This document shows, one piece after another, positions 6,401-12,400 of a stretch of DNA of 44,719 nt (within the stretch, counting starts at the first letter, position 1; each line of letters begins with the position of its first letter). The stretch covers positions 1 through 44,719 of the forward strand of contig JAYGCN010000210.1 of assembly GCA_046583315.1 (NCBI GenBank), given 5' to 3'. The position numbers were made by a program. The stretch comes from Candidatus Hydrogenedentota bacterium. GTDB taxonomy: Bacteria > Hydrogenedentota > Hydrogenedentia > Hydrogenedentales > GCA-2746185.

Positions 6401-9400
6401 CTCCATCGGGGCCTATGCGGCGGAGCGCACGATTGAGATCGATGACCATTATTTCGGGAAAGCGCGGCGTGGCGATCGAAGCGCGCGCAATGGAATTTTC
6501 TGGCCCGGCCTTGAGAATGGGTGGAAATGCGACGTGCGCAAGTTCAATCGGCAGGCATTGACAGGCGAGAATATTTTTCTCTACGCAGTGCACGAGGGTC
6601 GCCATGAACAGATTCAGGCGCGCCGACTGTTCTGGGACGAGAATCAGGAAACGTGGTTTCTTGAGGATGGCAGTTGGTCGGTGTTTGATGATCAGCAGGA
6701 CAATCTAGGTCAGACCACCTCCTTTGCCCGAATTCGTGCACCCTTTCAGGCTTCACCGGACTATTTGCTGACTTCCGAGGTGAACACGGATACACGCTCA
6801 ATGGGCGAACTGGCGAAACTTCACGACAAACACGCTAGCCAGGGTTATACCGCGCGCCGCCTGTATCTGGACATGCATACCAAAGTGGTCGACCCGCTGT
6901 TGTGTGTGGTGTTTATGGGCTTGGCCGTGCCGTTTTCGATTCGACTGGGCCGGGGTAATGTCTCGGTCGGACTGAGCGTCGCCATCGCACTGGGCCTGGG
7001 GTATATTGTCCTTGCTGGCGTGACTCAAGGCATGGGCTATTCCGGCCAGATACCGCCGGGAATTGCAGCGTGGTTGCCCTTCGCCCTGTATTTTTTGGGG
7101 TGCTTTGGCCTGATTTACCGTACTCCGACCTGACTATGGGACTAATTGCTTTATTCATAGGGGGTTAGTAAAAATTTGTTGTTGCAGGAAAATCCAATCT
7201 CTGGTAAACTTTGTTCGTAGATTTAGCGTTTCAGCAACACGCAAAAAAGGGAATTACATGAATGCTTACAGGAACGGTGTGATCTGTCTGGTCGCCGGAA
7301 TGATGCTGGCCGGATGTGTCACCAATCTTACCCCGCGCGCGCGCGAAGGCTGGACAGTGCCTCTGGACCATCTCGGTCTTAATGGGGACATTCGACGGCT
7401 TGATGAGCCGCATCGGTGGGAAGTACGCCAGGTATCCAGCTTTGATCGCACGGGTGGCAACAACGATGATCGCTATGGGCACCAGGTCTGGGACGGGGGT
7501 GCGATACTTGCAGACCTCGAAGGACCCGGCGTCGTGACACGCATCTGGTCGCGCAACCCACACGGTACAGTGTTCATTTTCGTTGATGATATCGAGCATC
7601 CAGTCATGGCGATGCCGTTTGCAACGATGTTTGCGGGCGAGACGGAATACGACGAACACAGTGTCAATCTTTTTAGCGCACCGTTTACGAATCAAGGCAG
7701 TGGCGGATACTTCAGCTACATGCCGATTCCCTACGAAAGCCGCTGTCGCATAATGGCCACGGGTATCGATGAGAGCCTGGGTTATCAGGTGACCTATGTT
7801 GATTTGCCTGCAGGGACGCCGATTCAGTCATTCGATTCGATGTTGTCGGAAGATGACATTCGGTTCTTCAAACGCTGGCAGGATAATTGGGAATTCACGA
7901 ATTACCGCTGGAGTGATCGCAAGACGGAGGAAGTGTGGAAATCGCGTCACAAGTATAACCCCGGCGAAGATTATCAGGTTATTCCGCTTCGCGGTTCCGG
8001 CGTGATTACGGAAATCGAAATATCGATTGAATCGGCTGATGAAGACACAATGGACGGGGTATGGTTGGCCATCTTTTTTGACGGGCAGGAAGACCCGGGT
8101 GTATTGACGCCCATTGGCGATTTTTTTGCGGCCTCCTCCAAAGATGTAGACGATTATGACAGCCTTGTGCTGGGTCGCAGTGAAGGCCGAATGTGGTGTC
8201 GCTACCCGATGCCCTATCGTGAGTCAGCAGAAATTCGATTCATCAACACGACCGATCAAATCGCGGATATCACCTACGCCGTAACGTATCGACCGGAAGA
8301 AGTGGCGCATGACAACTACTTCTTCGCACGGTACAACAGTGCTGAAACGGTAGAGGGCGTCCCTTACGAGGTACTCTCGGTCAATGGGGAAGGCCACTTC
8401 GTCGGAGCATCCATCTCTGCATCGAATGCGGATTCGCTCATCATTCTTGAAGGTGATGATTCGTATTCAGTCGATGGTCGCAGCCCTCAGGAATTTCACG
8501 GAACCGGTACGGACGACTATTTCAACGCGGGATGGTATTTCGCGGAAGGCTCCTCCTCCAGCCCAACGCATGGCGTGGCGCTCAAGGATGCCAAGAAACC
8601 CAACGGCTTCTCCGCGTTCCGCAGTCACTTTACGGAACCGGTAACCTTCGAAAAATCGTTCGTGTTTAATCTCGAACACGGGCCGAATAACGACCGTCCT
8701 GGCGTGCAGTACTCAAGCGTGTCTTACTGGTACCAGAATGATCGCACACCATCGCTGCGGGCTATTCCTGAAATTCAGGGCGTGCCGTTGCGAAAGGCGG
8801 ATTAATCCGAAACCAATAAACCAAAATCACCCCTGCACTCTTCTGAATGCCGGGGTGATTTTTTTGTTTTTCGTTCTAATTGCTAAAAAGGGTATTCGGC
8901 CATATAGTCCATGGCCCCGTAGAGGAACATGCGGACCATTTCAGGGTCACCCGTATCGAGCCCCGCCGCGCCGCCCCCGTAAACGCCACCGCTATCCGGG
9001 GTTTCTTTCGTCGTCGTCTTCGCGTACTCAACCGCTTCCGCGAGATCAGACACGAAACGATCAGCGACACCTTCTTTCGTCTGCGGTCGCGTGACGCACA
9101 TGTGAATGGCGCCGGGATTTTGCTGTCCGTTGAAGCGCCATCCGCGTTGGACCATAAAATCGTTGACGTGATAAATGTTGAATTCGTCGCTCGCAAACGA
9201 GAAGCACCAGGTCGGTTTGCCCATCAGCTTTAACTCGGGATGACTTTTCACGGCATCCTGCATCTTGAATGCCGTTTCAAATATTTCCTTGGCATGTTTC
9301 ATGTAGCCTTCTTTGCCCATTGTGACCATTGAGGCCCAGGTGGCTGCGATGAGGCCGCCGGAACGACTGCCCAGCAATCCTGTGGAGGCATAGGATCCGC

Positions 9401-12400
9401 CCTTCCAGTCGGGCCAGGCGAAATACTGGTGCGTGCGAAACGACTTGTCACGCAGCAGTAGCGTAGACGTACCTTTCAGTCCGTAGCCGTATTTGTGGGT
9501 GTCCGCCGAAATCGAAGTCACACCTGGCAACCTGAAATCCCAGATCGGAATATCATAACCCAGTGCCTCGCCCCAGGGAAGAATGTATCCGCCGAGACAG
9601 CCATCGACGTGCAGACCGACGTTTTTCTCAAGGGCCAATTCCGAAAGTTTCTCGATGGGGTCAATCGTGCCGTAGGGGTAGTTACCCGCAGACCCGACGA
9701 TGGCTATGGTATTTTCGTTGATGTGATCGCGTACCCAATCCACATCCACGAGTGTCGTCTCGTCGTCTACCGGCGCAAAAATGACTTCGATGTTGAACAG
9801 GTGTCCTGCTTTCACGAAGGCCGCATGTGCGGTGTCCGGCATAATCAGATTCGGCTCTGTAATACCCTGTTCGGCCTTGGCCTTATTGCGATAAATCAAC
9901 ATCGCGTTCAGAATACTCTCCGTGCCGCCTGCTCCAATCACGCCGCAGGGGGTCTCTCCGGGATGATGTTCCTTGACCGCGTCGCCGTGCAACATATCGA
10001 GTGCCATCGCGATGATCTCAGATTCAAAACGGTTCATGCTCATGCACATATCGCGCTGAATCGAGTTGACGTGGGAATACTGACCGTAAACCTCGTTCAA
10101 GAATTCGTAATGCTCGTGGTCGCCGCAGTACATCGTGCCTGAGCAGGAACCGTCTTCCCACCTGGCGTCTTCTGCGGTCGACATGGCCTCAACTTGTTTC
10201 AAGACTTCTTCACGACTCATGCCTTTCTCCGGCATGTTCTTGAGCACTCCGTATTCGTCTGCGTAGGGATACAAACCGCGCAATAATTTTTCAATGTCCA
10301 TTGATACTTCTCCGGTTACTTCGATTCGGTATAAATTAGCTAGGCGTTCAGTGCCTTCTGCATGAGTTCCATCGCGTCGGCGTGCAGGGTTTCATTCGCC
10401 GCGGCTATGATTGTGCCGCCTTCCATGGGAATTTCGCCGTCAAGATTGGTAATGATACCACCTGCGGTCTCGATAATGGGAATGAGCGGTACAATGTCGT
10501 AGGCCTGCAACATGCCCTCGACCACCATATCGATGCAGCCGTGGGCCAGTAGGCAATAGGAGTAACAATCACCCCCGAAACGCTGCAGGCGGCATCGTGC
10601 GGAGATGTCCTGAAATCCCTGCTGCTCTTTGCTGCTTGCAAACAGATACGGATGCGTGCTGTAGATGATGGCATCGCCCAGGGTCGCATCCTGCCGGGAT
10701 TGTAGCTGCTGCGATCCATCACGACTGTGCAACCAGGATTTCACGTTGTCCCCGACAAAGGTTTCCTGCGTATAGGGTTGGTGCATGATGCCTCCCAGAC
10801 AAGCATCGCCGTCGGTCAATCCCAGGAGCACGCCCCAACCAGTGACGCCGCTGATGAAGGCGCGGGTGCCGTCGATGGGATCGATTACCCAGCGCAGATC
10901 GCTGTCGCCTTCGGAGCCGTACTCTTCACCGAGGATGGCGTAACCCGGAAAGTGTTTCGCGAGGCCCTCGCGCAGCTTCTCTTCGATGCGCTTGTCGGCC
11001 TGCGTTACGGGATCGAAGTAGACCCCTTCCATCTTGTTGTCGACCTGATGCGGCTTGCGGAAATACTCCAGCGAGATTTTTCCGGCCTCCTCCACCAGTT
11101 CGCGCGCGATCGTCATGTGTTCTTTGATTTCGTCGTGGTTCATGTTGATTCCTGATTGGTTCGTTACAATCGTTTATGCGGATTCATACGCCTGAACAGC
11201 GGACGCGTCCGCTTGAAGGCCAACTTGAATGACCCAAACAACTCAGCGTATACCTCTTCCGTTTCGGGGCGCGGCTCGAGCACTTCCTTAATTTCCAACT
11301 TGCCGGGTATCTCATCAATGGTCATTTCGCCGAGGCCCTGAAAAGCAAGGTAGGCCCCGCCGCGCACGACGGTGTATTCGGGGTCCGCGACCTGATGCAC
11401 GGGGATGCGAAACACGTCAGCCATGATCTGCGCGCCTTCGCGGGATTTTGCGCCCCCACCGTAGAACACAATATGCGTCATTTTGCGTTTTGAGAAGGAT
11501 TCCACGCCTTCGCGCAACCATTGCAGATTCATCATGAGGCTCTCGATCGCCGCGCGGGCCATGTCGGATCGGGTCGTCTCCAGATTCAGATTCATCACCG
11601 CGCCGCGCATTGAGGGTTCGGGCGTGGGAGCCTGCACACCGGACAACCAGGGCAAAAACAGTACGCCATTGCTGCCCGGAGGCACGGACGCAAGCACTTC
11701 GTCGAGTTCCTGAAAGGTCTCGTCCGAGGAGTGATCGGCAAATCCGTCGTTGGGGTACACCAGCTTCGTCAGAAAAAATTCGATCACTTTCCCGGCAATC
11801 CCGTTTTCTGCCAACACGAAAAATGTGTCCGGCACAGGCGAGGGCATGCTCATCATACCTTTAATCGGGTCCGTCTTCTGACGATCCATGTGTGTGATCA
11901 TGACACCGGTCGTGCCAATGCTGATGGCACCGTGCGTACCGCTAAAGGTACCCGTCGCAATCCCGCCGACTTGCGTATCGTTCACACCTGAGAATATTTT
12001 CGTCTCCGGAGATAACCGCAACTCGTTCGCTACCGCTGGAAGAATGGTACCGACAATCGAATTCACCGGAACCAGTTCGGGCCATTTATCGGCGTCGATG
12101 CCGGACATCGCGATGAGGTCGGGTTCGTATTCGGTTCGTCCCAATATCTTGTTGTTCACGCCCAGCATCATCAGCGCGGTGCATTGACTGGCAGTGGCAC
12201 GTCCGCTGAATCGCATGGTGAGAAAATCGCTGGGCTCGAGAAAGGTTTTCGTGCGCGCGTAGACTTCTGGGAAACGATATTTAATCAGGCGCATGTGGGA
12301 CAAGGAATCCTGACCCGTACTCAAGGGAGGCAGACCAGCGCGTCGTAACCACTTCAGTTGCCGAAGCAGACTATCCGTCTTGAAGCCCGGCAACTTCTTC

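Follow-up and report, generated by a model that had tools for sequence, protein, structure and literature searches.

The window analyzed here, a stretch of 44,719 nucleotides of contig JAYGCN010000210.1 (Candidatus Hydrogenedentota bacterium), contains a gene for a sphingosine-1-phosphate (S1P) lyase-family enzyme. An earlier note had described the genes of a sphingolipid breakdown route in this genome as scattered and not forming an operon; the lyase gene was found to end a run of three genes on the same strand (FGGY kinase, HisN-like phosphatase, and lyase, in this order), with gaps of 20 and 38 nt. The features of the window are as follows.

8823..8862, no strand: hairpin between the lyase gene and the convergent DUF2961 gene
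8883..10301, minus strand: soluble PLP enzyme of the S1P-lyase family (472 aa), of Burkholderia type; closes the operon
10340..11143, minus strand: accessory HisN-like phosphatase, 267 aa (inositol-monophosphatase family)
11164..12747, minus strand: FGGY-family kinase of no named subfamily, 527 aa from ATG 12747; first gene of the operon
12885..14141, plus strand: MFS transporter, divergent (Pfam MFS_1)
32576..33823, plus strand: ceramidase-N-domain-only protein (Ceramidase_alk E 9e-19, aa 22-242 only)

Judged from its sequence, 8883..10301 is a genuine S1P-lyase-family gene (EC 4.1.2.27 family). It is full-length, as the earlier note stated, and the E values given there were confirmed. In the PDB sequence search, the top match was the B. 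pseudomallei S1P lyase (S1PL) 5K1R (E 4.4e-203, aa 1-471), nine further S1PL/aldolase chains followed (E 6.5e-129 to 3.6e-65), and decarboxylases entered the ranking only at E 1.8e-30. The lyase scored 679 bits to Burkholderia, 434 to Symbiobacterium, and 312-320 to eukaryotic chains, and the fold of the partner kinase is unrelated to that of eukaryotic sphingosine kinases; the label "eukaryote-type" thus does not suit the route. Symbiobacterium thermophilum is a free-living bacterium. Its enzyme, which PMC6148460 lists in a table with two other bacterial S1PLs, was omitted when these lyases were said to be known mainly from intracellular pathogens. Pfam assigned the lyase to Pyridoxal_deC, and 14 of the 14 active-site residues in Table 3 of PMC6148460 were kept. 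These comprise the PLP lysine, PLP cup, and sandwich residues of the Group II decarboxylase fold (G126, T127, H159, D233, C235, H269, K270, and S312), and the substrate-phosphate pocket A/T-Y-N-H/Q-K with the entry tyrosine (T56, Y58, N79, Q82, K276, and Y441), which equals the Burkholderia column of that table. Cleavage of S1P into an aldehyde and phosphoethanolamine, demonstrated for homologues only, is predicted for 8883..10301.

Matches to the lyase were retrieved from 58 of 135 genomes of the phylum at E<=1e-80, reproducing the earlier count, and from 72 at E 1e-20. They do not represent 58 S1P lyases. Among the 85 of 87 matches whose residues were checked, the substrate-phosphate signature defined a canonical clade of 13 matches in 13 genomes. 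None of the other 72 carried H/Q82 of the S1P-lyase phosphate pocket: 45 formed clade B (L56, Y/F58, N82, and T312), 25 formed clade C (mostly D82, with no Tyr at 441), and two fell outside both clades. A two-domain ceramidase was present in 10 of the 135 genomes, it occurred together with the canonical lyase in three, and 6 of the 10 ceramidase genomes wholly lacked a lyase-like gene. The proposal that the route extends through much of the phylum does not agree with this distribution.

Known FGGY kinases act on polyols of three to seven carbons. Kinase 11164..12747 belongs to this family by its Pfam domains (FGGY_N+C), its two-domain actin-like fold (structure model with pLDDT 89.9; top PDB match in Foldseek with TM 0.82 at 22% identity), and the catalytic aspartate pair D14 and D257; homologues favored an ATG four codons downstream of that at 12747. 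Its fold (TM 0.76-0.82), catalytic aspartates, and ATP-binding motifs are shared with GlpK, XylB, GntK, AraB, RhaB/FucK, and LsrK (PMC3245297), whereas identity to the solved members was about 18-23%. By curated HMM cut-offs and signature residues, it fitted none of the named isofunctional groups (XylB, GlpK, GntK, AraB, FucK, RhaB, and LsrK): it reached the cut-off of none of the 11 NCBIfam FGGY models matched (best XylB, 207 bits vs 380), and positions 87/88 are W/Y-S instead of the known signatures R-E (GlpK) or M-H (XylB-I and GntK) (PMC3245297). Kinases of the lyase-associated clade also differ from known members in a longer basic segment (net charge +3.6 vs +0.3) and in having a PLP lyase as partner. 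This segment could serve in membrane binding, although its hydrophobic moment was not above that of eight controls (0.65 vs 0.61). E171 was found in 99% of 102 lyase-clade kinases, while N occupied this position in 88% of 25 kinases of a sister clade; support for the split of the two clades was low (0.47 and 0.42).

The association of the two enzymes was examined in both directions. Starting from the lyase, the kinase lay alongside in 11 of the 13 canonical loci of the phylum; in the two exceptions, the kinase was on another contig (G036) or the locus was cut (G066). No kinase was detected beside the 72 non-canonical loci within the 1.5-2.5 kb fetched. The distribution of the module is patchy (12 of 135 genomes), and the module looks horizontally moved rather than a trait of the phylum. 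Starting from 80 metagenome loci found by kinase alignment alone, a lyase was identified in 67, with 10 loci cut within 400 bp and three clear misses (65, 12, and 3, respectively, on a stricter scale). The 65 strict pairs were all on the same strand with a median gap of 89 bp, and Y58-N79-H/Q82-K276 was kept in all 65 partner lyases, each fully covered. By clusters at 70% identity, 40 of 47 were paired in the strict test. Pairing was found in 7 of 17 kinase loci of Chloroflexota and 11 of 29 of Actinomycetota, the latter comprising 11 of 12 loci with E171 and none of 17 without it. Both gene orders occurred across phyla, and no third enzyme was conserved with the pair. Among the metagenome loci, kinase and lyase identities were correlated (rho 0.85, n=46, with kin not independent), and no such correlation was seen in two smaller sets (n=7 and n=11). 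Thirteen clean fusions of the lyase to an aldehyde:ferredoxin oxidoreductase (AOR; 58-64% identity) fit an aldehyde as the product; apparent kinase-lyase fusions were frameshift artefacts.

Neighbors of the pairs were mostly unrelated genes. In a raw tally with no control set behind it, lipid-type genes recurred (FadL porin, aldehyde dehydrogenase (ALDH), acyl-CoA dehydrogenases, acyl-CoA ligase, thiolase, amidases, and TetR regulators), and sugar-type genes lay near some pairs (GntR/UTRA regulators, GH1, GalT, class II aldolase, and MFS). PTS genes were absent from the scanned neighbors, neutral ceramidase was found near none of the fetched pairs, and no DAGK gene was found at any fetched lyase locus. 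The kinase family was not clearly enriched in ceramidase genomes (4 of 10) over the rest of the phylum (33 of 125).

The closest known lyases are those of B. pseudomallei and B. thailandensis (BPSS2021 and BPSS2025; 5K1R; PMC5234717), which share the T56-Y58-N79-Q82 pocket and a short soluble N terminus. BPSS2026 of B. pseudomallei ("Carbohydrate kinase, FGGY", 537 aa; identified by annotation and length only) directly precedes BPSS2025 on the same strand, at a distance of 275 bp. PMC5234717 reports that BPSS2025 cleaves S1P in vitro with a KM of 50 uM and that its paralogue shows only about 8% activity with unphosphorylated sphingosine, from which a kinase would be needed. Published work on these lyases treats them as virulence factors directed at host S1P, and "kinase" and "operon" do not occur in that main text as available. 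The present genome differs in being environmental, with a single lyase copy and an inserted HisN-like gene. No published description of an FGGY kinase paired with an S1P lyase was found in a literature search of incomplete coverage.

From linkage only, we propose 11164..12747 as a putative sphingoid-base or 2-amino-1,3-diol kinase. On balance, we favor the reading that it is a non-orthologous kinase of sphingoid bases that supplies the lyase with substrate, in a mobile two-enzyme module that yields phosphoethanolamine and a fatty aldehyde for long-chain base breakdown or detoxification. The pairing is kept in many bacteria and probably serves to phosphorylate and then split sphingosine-like amino-alcohols. 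The kinase would transfer phosphate from ATP to the C1 hydroxyl of the 2-amino-1,3-diol, much as glycerol kinase acts on a glycerol-like head, and the PLP lyase would cut the C2-C3 bond by the retro-aldol chemistry of its family, as demonstrated for the nearest homologue of solved structure. The aldehyde may then be oxidized by a class-3 ALDH encoded elsewhere in the genome or, in anaerobes, by the AOR fused to the lyase. The order and products would equal those of the eukaryotic exit route (SPHK1/2 or Lcb4/5, SGPL1/Dpl1, and ALDH3A2: phosphorylation, retro-aldol cleavage, and oxidation), with the FGGY (actin-like ATPase) kinase standing in for the DAGK-fold sphingosine kinase, a lyase devoid of a membrane anchor, and an operon arrangement. 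P. gingivalis dhSphK1 and Caulobacter CpgB (10.1101/2023.05.01.538943), like the proposed kinase, place a phosphate on C1 of a sphingoid base or ceramide; however, they belong to the DAGK/YegS lipid-kinase family, CpgB occurs in sphingolipid producers, and neither the fold nor the pairing with a catabolic lyase is shared.

In this genome, an unlinked and probably secreted neutral ceramidase (g01605, C129:6201-8195) could supply the sphingoid base. The earlier identification of this two-domain protein held: it matched the P. aeruginosa enzyme (E 1.4e-121, aa 32-656) over both domains and kept H97, H99, R160, H204, E411, Y448, and Y460, which we take to be the zinc-binding and catalytic residues. 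It scored below the cut-off of NCBIfam NF041649 (405 bits vs 1200). Ceramidase_alk gave 13 matches on 10 genes, as had been reported, and none in 14 control genomes. The other nine proteins (open frames of 389-551 aa) covered only profile positions about 1-258 and 416-502 and lacked the C-terminal domain of full-length neutral ceramidases, in line with the earlier note; six of them aligned to true ceramidases, four as partial stretches. Since the two-domain form occurs in 10 of 135 genomes, the earlier figure of 98% of the phylum reflects the N-domain-only proteins. Of these, 32576..33823 keeps the HTHS metal motif but not the long inserts or the C-terminal domain, is followed after 3 nt by a DUF7133/cytochrome c gene, and is probably outside the route. 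The response of P. aeruginosa to external sphingosine (SphR/CerN/SphBCD; PMC11398299) also involves a neutral ceramidase, together with a PLP aldolase-type gene; in contrast, that system is oxidative (cytochrome c and FAD oxidoreductase) with different enzyme families, and "kinase" is absent from its main text.

Serine palmitoyltransferase (SPT) was not found among the nine strongest of 14 PF00155 matches, of which the sole oxoamine-synthase-type protein scored 393 bits as BioF and at most 269 as SPT (cut-offs 500-670). With the lyase, the ceramidase, and the class-3 (fatty) ALDH candidate present and no SPT found, it is plausible that sphingoid bases from outside are catabolized in this genome's host cell. 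Many bacteria synthesize sphingolipids (PMC6148460, 10.1101/2023.05.01.538943), and with the genome at 96.7% completeness a biosynthetic gene may have escaped the assembly; nevertheless, turnover of the cell's own sphingolipids is scarcely credible, given the BioF assignment in a search directed at SPT and the Burkholderia and Legionella lyase carriers reported without biosynthetic genes (PMC6148460). EutB, for onward ethanolamine use, was not found in this genome.

The remaining alternatives concern the kinase and its substrate. The main rival, though rather unlikely, is that the module acts on a small polar 2-amino-1,3-diol, such as an amino-sugar alcohol (a 2-amino-2-deoxy-alditol, for example) or an amino-diol that is short or aromatic, with S1P cleavage as a side activity. 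All characterized FGGY kinases use small polyols (PMC3245297), the sister kinase clade is accompanied by a class III aminotransferase and a class II aldolase as in fucose/rhamnose routes, GntR/UTRA regulators and MFS transporters adjoin some pairs and ceramidases none, and the mammalian lyase accepts chains down to C7 (PMC6148460). Against this, all assayed members of the lyase clade are S1P lyases and have a hydrophobic funnel (PMC6148460), the pairs have FadL, ALDH, and acyl-CoA genes but no PTS nearby, and at one locus, on a Burkholderia ambifaria plasmid, the sister-clade operon lies near an ALDH gene, three TetR genes, and an Mpo1-like 2-hydroxy-fatty-acid dioxygenase gene. The slow turnover of the Burkholderia lyases (kcat 0.015 and 0.008 per s) speaks for a small substrate, but the Vmax of recombinant human lyase quoted alongside (2.6 pmol/min/ug; both from PMC5234717) converts by our arithmetic to about 0.003 per s, so that slow turnover is normal for the family.

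We regard it as improbable that a real S1P lyase is accompanied by a kinase serving another step of the regulon (a head-group sugar or a glycerol-type or alkyl-glycerol product), the base being phosphorylated by a DAGK or S1P being taken up ready-made. The FGGY kinase PA3024 lies in a putative glycerolipid operon of P. aeruginosa (PMC8151288), host-associated Burkholderia meet S1P directly, three kinase loci with full flanks lack a lyase, and the genes are apart in G036; yet the linkage is tight, E171 tracks the lyase, and aldehyde and phosphoethanolamine include no free polyol. The animal-type route of GH116, neutral ceramidase, DAGK_cat, and lyase over much of the phylum, as first suggested, has very little probability. 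All four families do exist in this genome, the ceramidase residues are kept, and DAGK-family enzymes phosphorylate bacterial sphingolipids, but the roles given to two of the genes did not stand. The DAGK_cat gene on C74 (g00961) was not supported as a sphingosine kinase: it exceeded the YegS/Rv2252/BmrU cut-off of NCBIfam, its best PDB matches were bacterial DgkB/BmrU/YegS (human SphK1 only at E 7.5e-7), and its near-core relatives (115 of 135 genomes, vs 13 for the lyase) were beside the lyase at none of the loci fetched. It adjoins purB, DAGK_cat matches occurred in 13 of 14 control genomes, and the lyase operon already holds a dedicated kinase. The GH116 gene (g02035, C171:7376-9940), between tsaB/rimI and coaE, was not supported as a glucosylceramidase; in one alignment, Arg replaced the TxGH116 Asp and the Glu was probably kept, presumably the acid/base residue and the nucleophile, respectively.

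HisN-like 10340..11143 scored 268.5 bits against TIGR02067 (cut-off 275). Its close relatives were confined to 3 of 135 phylum genomes, and of the 80 metagenome loci 8 had such a gene in the cluster; the sister genome G037 keeps it without kinase and lyase. Speculatively, it may dephosphorylate phosphoethanolamine. The divergent MFS transporter is a possible accessory of the module: it had no match among the 80 metagenome loci, and its orthologue in G036 (49% identity) adjoins the kinase and HisN-like genes. The hairpin at 8823..8862 was missed by a simple terminator scan; folding of 8806-8882 gave -30.7 kcal/mol (z -6.77, 0 of 200 shuffles), and the hairpin is a probable bidirectional terminator at the end of the operon.

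The feature of interest in the window is an operon-level module of an FGGY kinase and a sphingosine-1-phosphate (S1P) lyase. The earlier note had taken the genes of its sphingolipid route to be scattered, but the lyase ends a same-strand operon, in which the genes run in the following order, 20 and 38 nt apart:

11164–12747, minus strand, FGGY kinase
10340–11143, minus strand, HisN-like phosphatase
8883–10301, minus strand, S1P lyase

A hairpin lies behind the lyase (z −6.77, matched by no shuffle); the promoter and terminator scan gave a result at or below chance. The module was then weighed as a whole. 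Its most likely role is a route for sphingoid bases in which the kinase, unexpected in its fold, acts before the lyase. For the module, the order of steps, kinase and then lyase, is highly probable, and a sphingoid substrate for the module is, overall, reasonably likely.

The lyase reading frame encodes 472 aa, and the protein adds one more member to a known family. In a search of solved structures, it matched the S1P lyase of Burkholderia pseudomallei at E 4.4e-203 (679 bits), followed by the S1P lyases of Symbiobacterium (434 bits), eukaryotes (312–320 bits), and Legionella (224 bits); decarboxylases appeared only from E 1.8e-30. Five characterised lyases have 14 residues for cofactor, substrate phosphate, and entry in common (PMC6148460, Table 3), and all 14 were present in the window lyase, in the Burkholderia variant T56-Y58-N79-Q82. 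The plasmid collection yielded lyase-like matches at 30–36% only.

The phylum is probably Hydrogenedentota, a name carried by a relative of the kinase at 72%. The lyase search of the 135 phylum genomes gave a match in 72 genomes at E 1e-20 and in 58 at E 1e-80. A tree was built from 85 of the 87 phylum matches, leaving out two short fragments. The canonical clade comprised 13 sequences from 13 genomes (one of them a fragment assigned by tree position) and carried H/Q82 together with Y58, N79, S312, and Y441. The second lyase-like clade (n = 45) carried L56, Y or F58, N82, and T312, the third (n = 25) carried D82 and had no Tyr at position 441, and two sequences fell outside all three clades. 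Judged by their residues, these paralogues fail the published signature, which would not in itself prove the absence of activity. Apart from synteny at the genus level and a TetR gene in nine loci of the third clade, no conserved neighbours were found for the second and third clades. The loci of these N82 and D82 clades, PLP enzymes with altered phosphate pockets, are L014–L029 and L216–L270 of the phylum set.

The two-domain ceramidase was found in 10 of the 135 genomes, seven of which belong to the family of the window's genome; three of the 10 have a canonical lyase, one has a gene of the second clade, and six have neither. A route spread over much of the phylum, as the earlier note proposed, therefore does not agree with the distribution of the canonical lyase and the ceramidase. 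The correction of the phylum count matters because the uncorrected figure would suggest a phylum-wide trait.

The genes named for that route are indeed present in the genome: the two-domain ceramidase, ten Ceramidase_alk genes, two DAGK_cat genes, and one GH116 gene. The DAGK gene proposed as the sphingoid kinase was rejected as the partner kinase. It passes the YegS/Rv2252/BmrU cut-off, and bacterial DgkB, BmrU, and YegS matched it far better than human SphK1. The gene lies behind purB, has relatives in 115 of the 135 phylum genomes, and occurs in none of the fetched lyase loci. The GH116 gene is flanked by tsaB/rimI and coaE, and in the alignment it has an Arg at the place where the Thermoanaerobacterium enzyme has its acid/base residue. 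Thus, the scattered, phylum-wide, animal-type route was not supported. In about 30 phylum genomes (G048–G057 and others), the DAGK_cat match lies in open frames of 870–1035 aa, a length that points to fusion with another domain.

The linkage between kinase and lyase was examined in both directions. In 1.5–2.5 kb fetched around the lyase-like genes, the kinase stood alongside 11 of the 13 canonical lyases, compared with 0 of 72 other lyase-like loci. Of the two exceptions, one (G036) has the kinase, the HisN-like gene, and an MFS gene on another contig, and the other (G066) is cut off by a contig end. For the reverse direction, an alignment of 37 kinases was used, and the lyase played no part in the selection. 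Among the best 80 of at least 560 metagenome stretches, a ranking by similarity to the window kinase that favours the lyase-linked clade, a lyase was present in 67, the stretch was cut within 400 bp downstream in 10, and three were clear misses; on a stricter scale, the same 80 gave 65 with the lyase, 12 cut, and three misses. All 65 linked pairs, which fell into 40 of the 47 clusters formed at 70% identity, were on the same strand (kinase first in 58, lyase first in seven) with a median gap of 89 bp. Of the partner lyases with coverage at six positions, all 65 kept Y58-N79-H/Q82-K276. Kinase loci from Chloroflexota and Actinomycetota also had the pair, in 7 of 17 and 11 of 29 cases, respectively; the others were mostly members of a sister kinase clade or ordinary FGGY kinases. 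Five long two-domain proteins were rejected as true kinase–lyase fusions because their garbled middles are typical of frameshifted assemblies or deletion, and they were entered as adjacency. A search for kinases of at least 997 aa returned none at E 1e-80, which argues weakly against fusions.

A similar arrangement is annotated around a lyase with assayed activity. BPSS2025 of B. pseudomallei cleaves S1P in vitro with a KM of 50 uM and a kcat of 0.008 per s, and about 8% activity was left on unphosphorylated sphingosine for its paralogue, according to the main text of PMC5234717, in which the words "kinase" and "operon" do not appear. The supplementary table of PMC6521459 lists BPSS2026, 275 bp upstream of BPSS2025 on the same strand, as a "Carbohydrate kinase, FGGY" of 537 aa; from this annotation, length, and position, it is a putative member of the kinase subfamily. 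In the K96243 coordinates consulted, a TetR gene and acyl-CoA dehydrogenases come after the BPSS2025–2026 pair, but their link to it is weak because about 18 genes lie between by B. thailandensis E555 numbering. Our search, which left subscription journals and bioRxiv supplements outside, found no paper joining an FGGY kinase to S1P lyase or sphingoid metabolism.

The window kinase was modelled with an FGGY fold (pLDDT 89.9; best TM 0.82 at 22% identity). It keeps D14 and D257, and its scores reach none of the named NCBIfam cut-offs. A tree was built of 128 members of the family, three ordinary paralogues serving as the outgroup. In this tree, the lyase-linked clade (102 members) was sister to a clade (25 members) whose partners are an aminotransferase plus a class II aldolase; the partner labels did not mix, and support was only 0.42 and 0.47 at the two basal nodes. 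In the sister-clade operon, the kinase gene is joined by genes for a class II aldolase and a HemL-like class III aminotransferase (phylum loci L087–L104; Chloroflexota L203–L211, and L215). Of the 20 fetched phylum kinases not adjacent to a lyase, 18 belonged to this clade, 15 with the aldolase and 14 with the aminotransferase. On the B. ambifaria plasmid NZ_CP152372.1 (L215), the operon is followed by SDR, ALDH, and Mpo1-like genes; Mpo1 has a role in yeast phytosphingosine breakdown. Both clades share a segment about nine residues longer and more basic than in eight controls, and an amphipathic-helix argument for it was discarded because the hydrophobic moment was no higher than in those controls. 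At the first two specificity positions taken from PMC3245297, the residues are W/Y-S in the lyase clade, G-E in the sister clade, and M-H or R-E in the controls. Among the lyase-clade kinases, 99% have E171; among those of the sister clade, 88% have N there. Such a split would be expected if the lyase-clade kinase binds an amine and the sister-clade kinase a deaminated ketone.

Several observations were counted for a long-chain base as the substrate. All assayed lyase relatives share S1P-lyase chemistry, and 13 clean AOR–lyase fusions were found (protein clusters P0122–P0134, one named Desulfobacterales and one Deltaproteobacteria). Pair neighbours included a FadL porin, ALDH (four loci), acyl-CoA dehydrogenases (four), an acyl-CoA ligase, a thiolase, amidases, and TetR genes. 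In the window's genome, the ceramidase has a signal-like N terminus and intact catalytic positions, a class-3 ALDH is encoded at G000:C354:77815–79305 (L309), and no SPT was found among the nine strongest of the 14 PF00155 matches. Against a long-chain base were counted the absence of a ceramidase near the pair in all fetched loci (Myxococcota and Bdellovibrionota lying outside this set), the finding of no EutB, and the pair neighbours, most of which were unrelated and some sugar-type, with no control set. In the neighbour scan, 123 of the first set's 249 candidates were covered, along with 107 ORFs, most from a list of 162. The kinase family was not clearly enriched in ceramidase genomes (4 of 10 compared with 33 of 125). 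The class III aminotransferase beside three pairs was considered as a phosphoethanolamine phospho-lyase and rejected, as the one tested best matched putrescine/ornithine aminotransferases.

The class-3 ALDH gene comes directly after one for an acyl-ACP-type fatty acid desaturase, and its product is 48% identical to the ALDH near some pairs. Other lyase fusions were an amidase–lyase (P0156, Polyangiaceae) and a P450–lyase (P0135). In phylum genome G060, the gene after the lyase belongs to the penicillin-amidase family (L070:6559–8871) and possibly provides an amide-cleaving step; G000:C97:48918–51080 in the window's genome is 60% identical to it, and six more family members occur in that genome.

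Both kinase and lyase were present in 12 of the 135 phylum genomes; of the 13 other genomes in the family of the window's genome, just one had both. A genome that is not part of the phylum set (L031) has the closest copies of both (81–82% identical), above any phylum member. In the 84% complete sister genome of the same genus (G037), the flanking genes are kept and the kinase and lyase are absent; a DUF2961 gene and the HisN-like gene at G037:C261:1–2550 (L328) are arranged as in the window. The HisN-like gene was found in 3 of the 135 genomes and in 8 of the 80 best-ranked metagenome clusters. This patchiness fits transfer or repeated loss.

The module resembles the eukaryotic exit pathway in its working but differs in its kinase, which lies outside the sphingosine-kinase family. 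For bacteria without their own sphingolipids, lyases are known, and a kinase for sphingoid bases is undescribed in the literature accessible to our search. If the product of the FGGY gene phosphorylates sphingoid bases, it would be a sphingosine kinase that arose by convergence from a different fold and would give the FGGY family its first lipid substrate, and the pair would provide a two-gene marker of sphingolipid-backbone turnover in environmental genomes. More tentatively, the FGGY branch may be the main sphingoid-base kinase of free-living bacteria, serving two sister routes: an amine-keeping one (kinase and PLP lyase, E171 clade) yielding phosphoethanolamine and an aldehyde, and a sugar-like one for phytosphingosine (class III aminotransferase, kinase, and class II aldolase, N171 clade) yielding DHAP and an aldehyde. 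Were this so, the module would be an ordinary catabolic or detoxifying one of the environment, from which the Burkholderia "virulence" lyases had been borrowed.

Elsewhere in the window, an F-type ATP synthase operon contains a c-like gene after atpI-atpB:

455–1432, minus strand, 325-aa c-like protein with four c repeats
94–417, 1445–2287, and 2220–2663, minus strand, neighbours of the c-like gene in the operon

Where the adjoining ordinary c subunit has its ion-binding Glu, the four repeats carry Ala, Gln, Gly, and Gln. The protein resembles the c1 subunits of hybrid rotors, but its carboxylate is wholly absent. At 32576–36973 on the plus strand, a ceramidase-N-domain gene is separated by 3 nt from a gene for a 1048-aa DUF7133/cytochrome c/HEAT protein.
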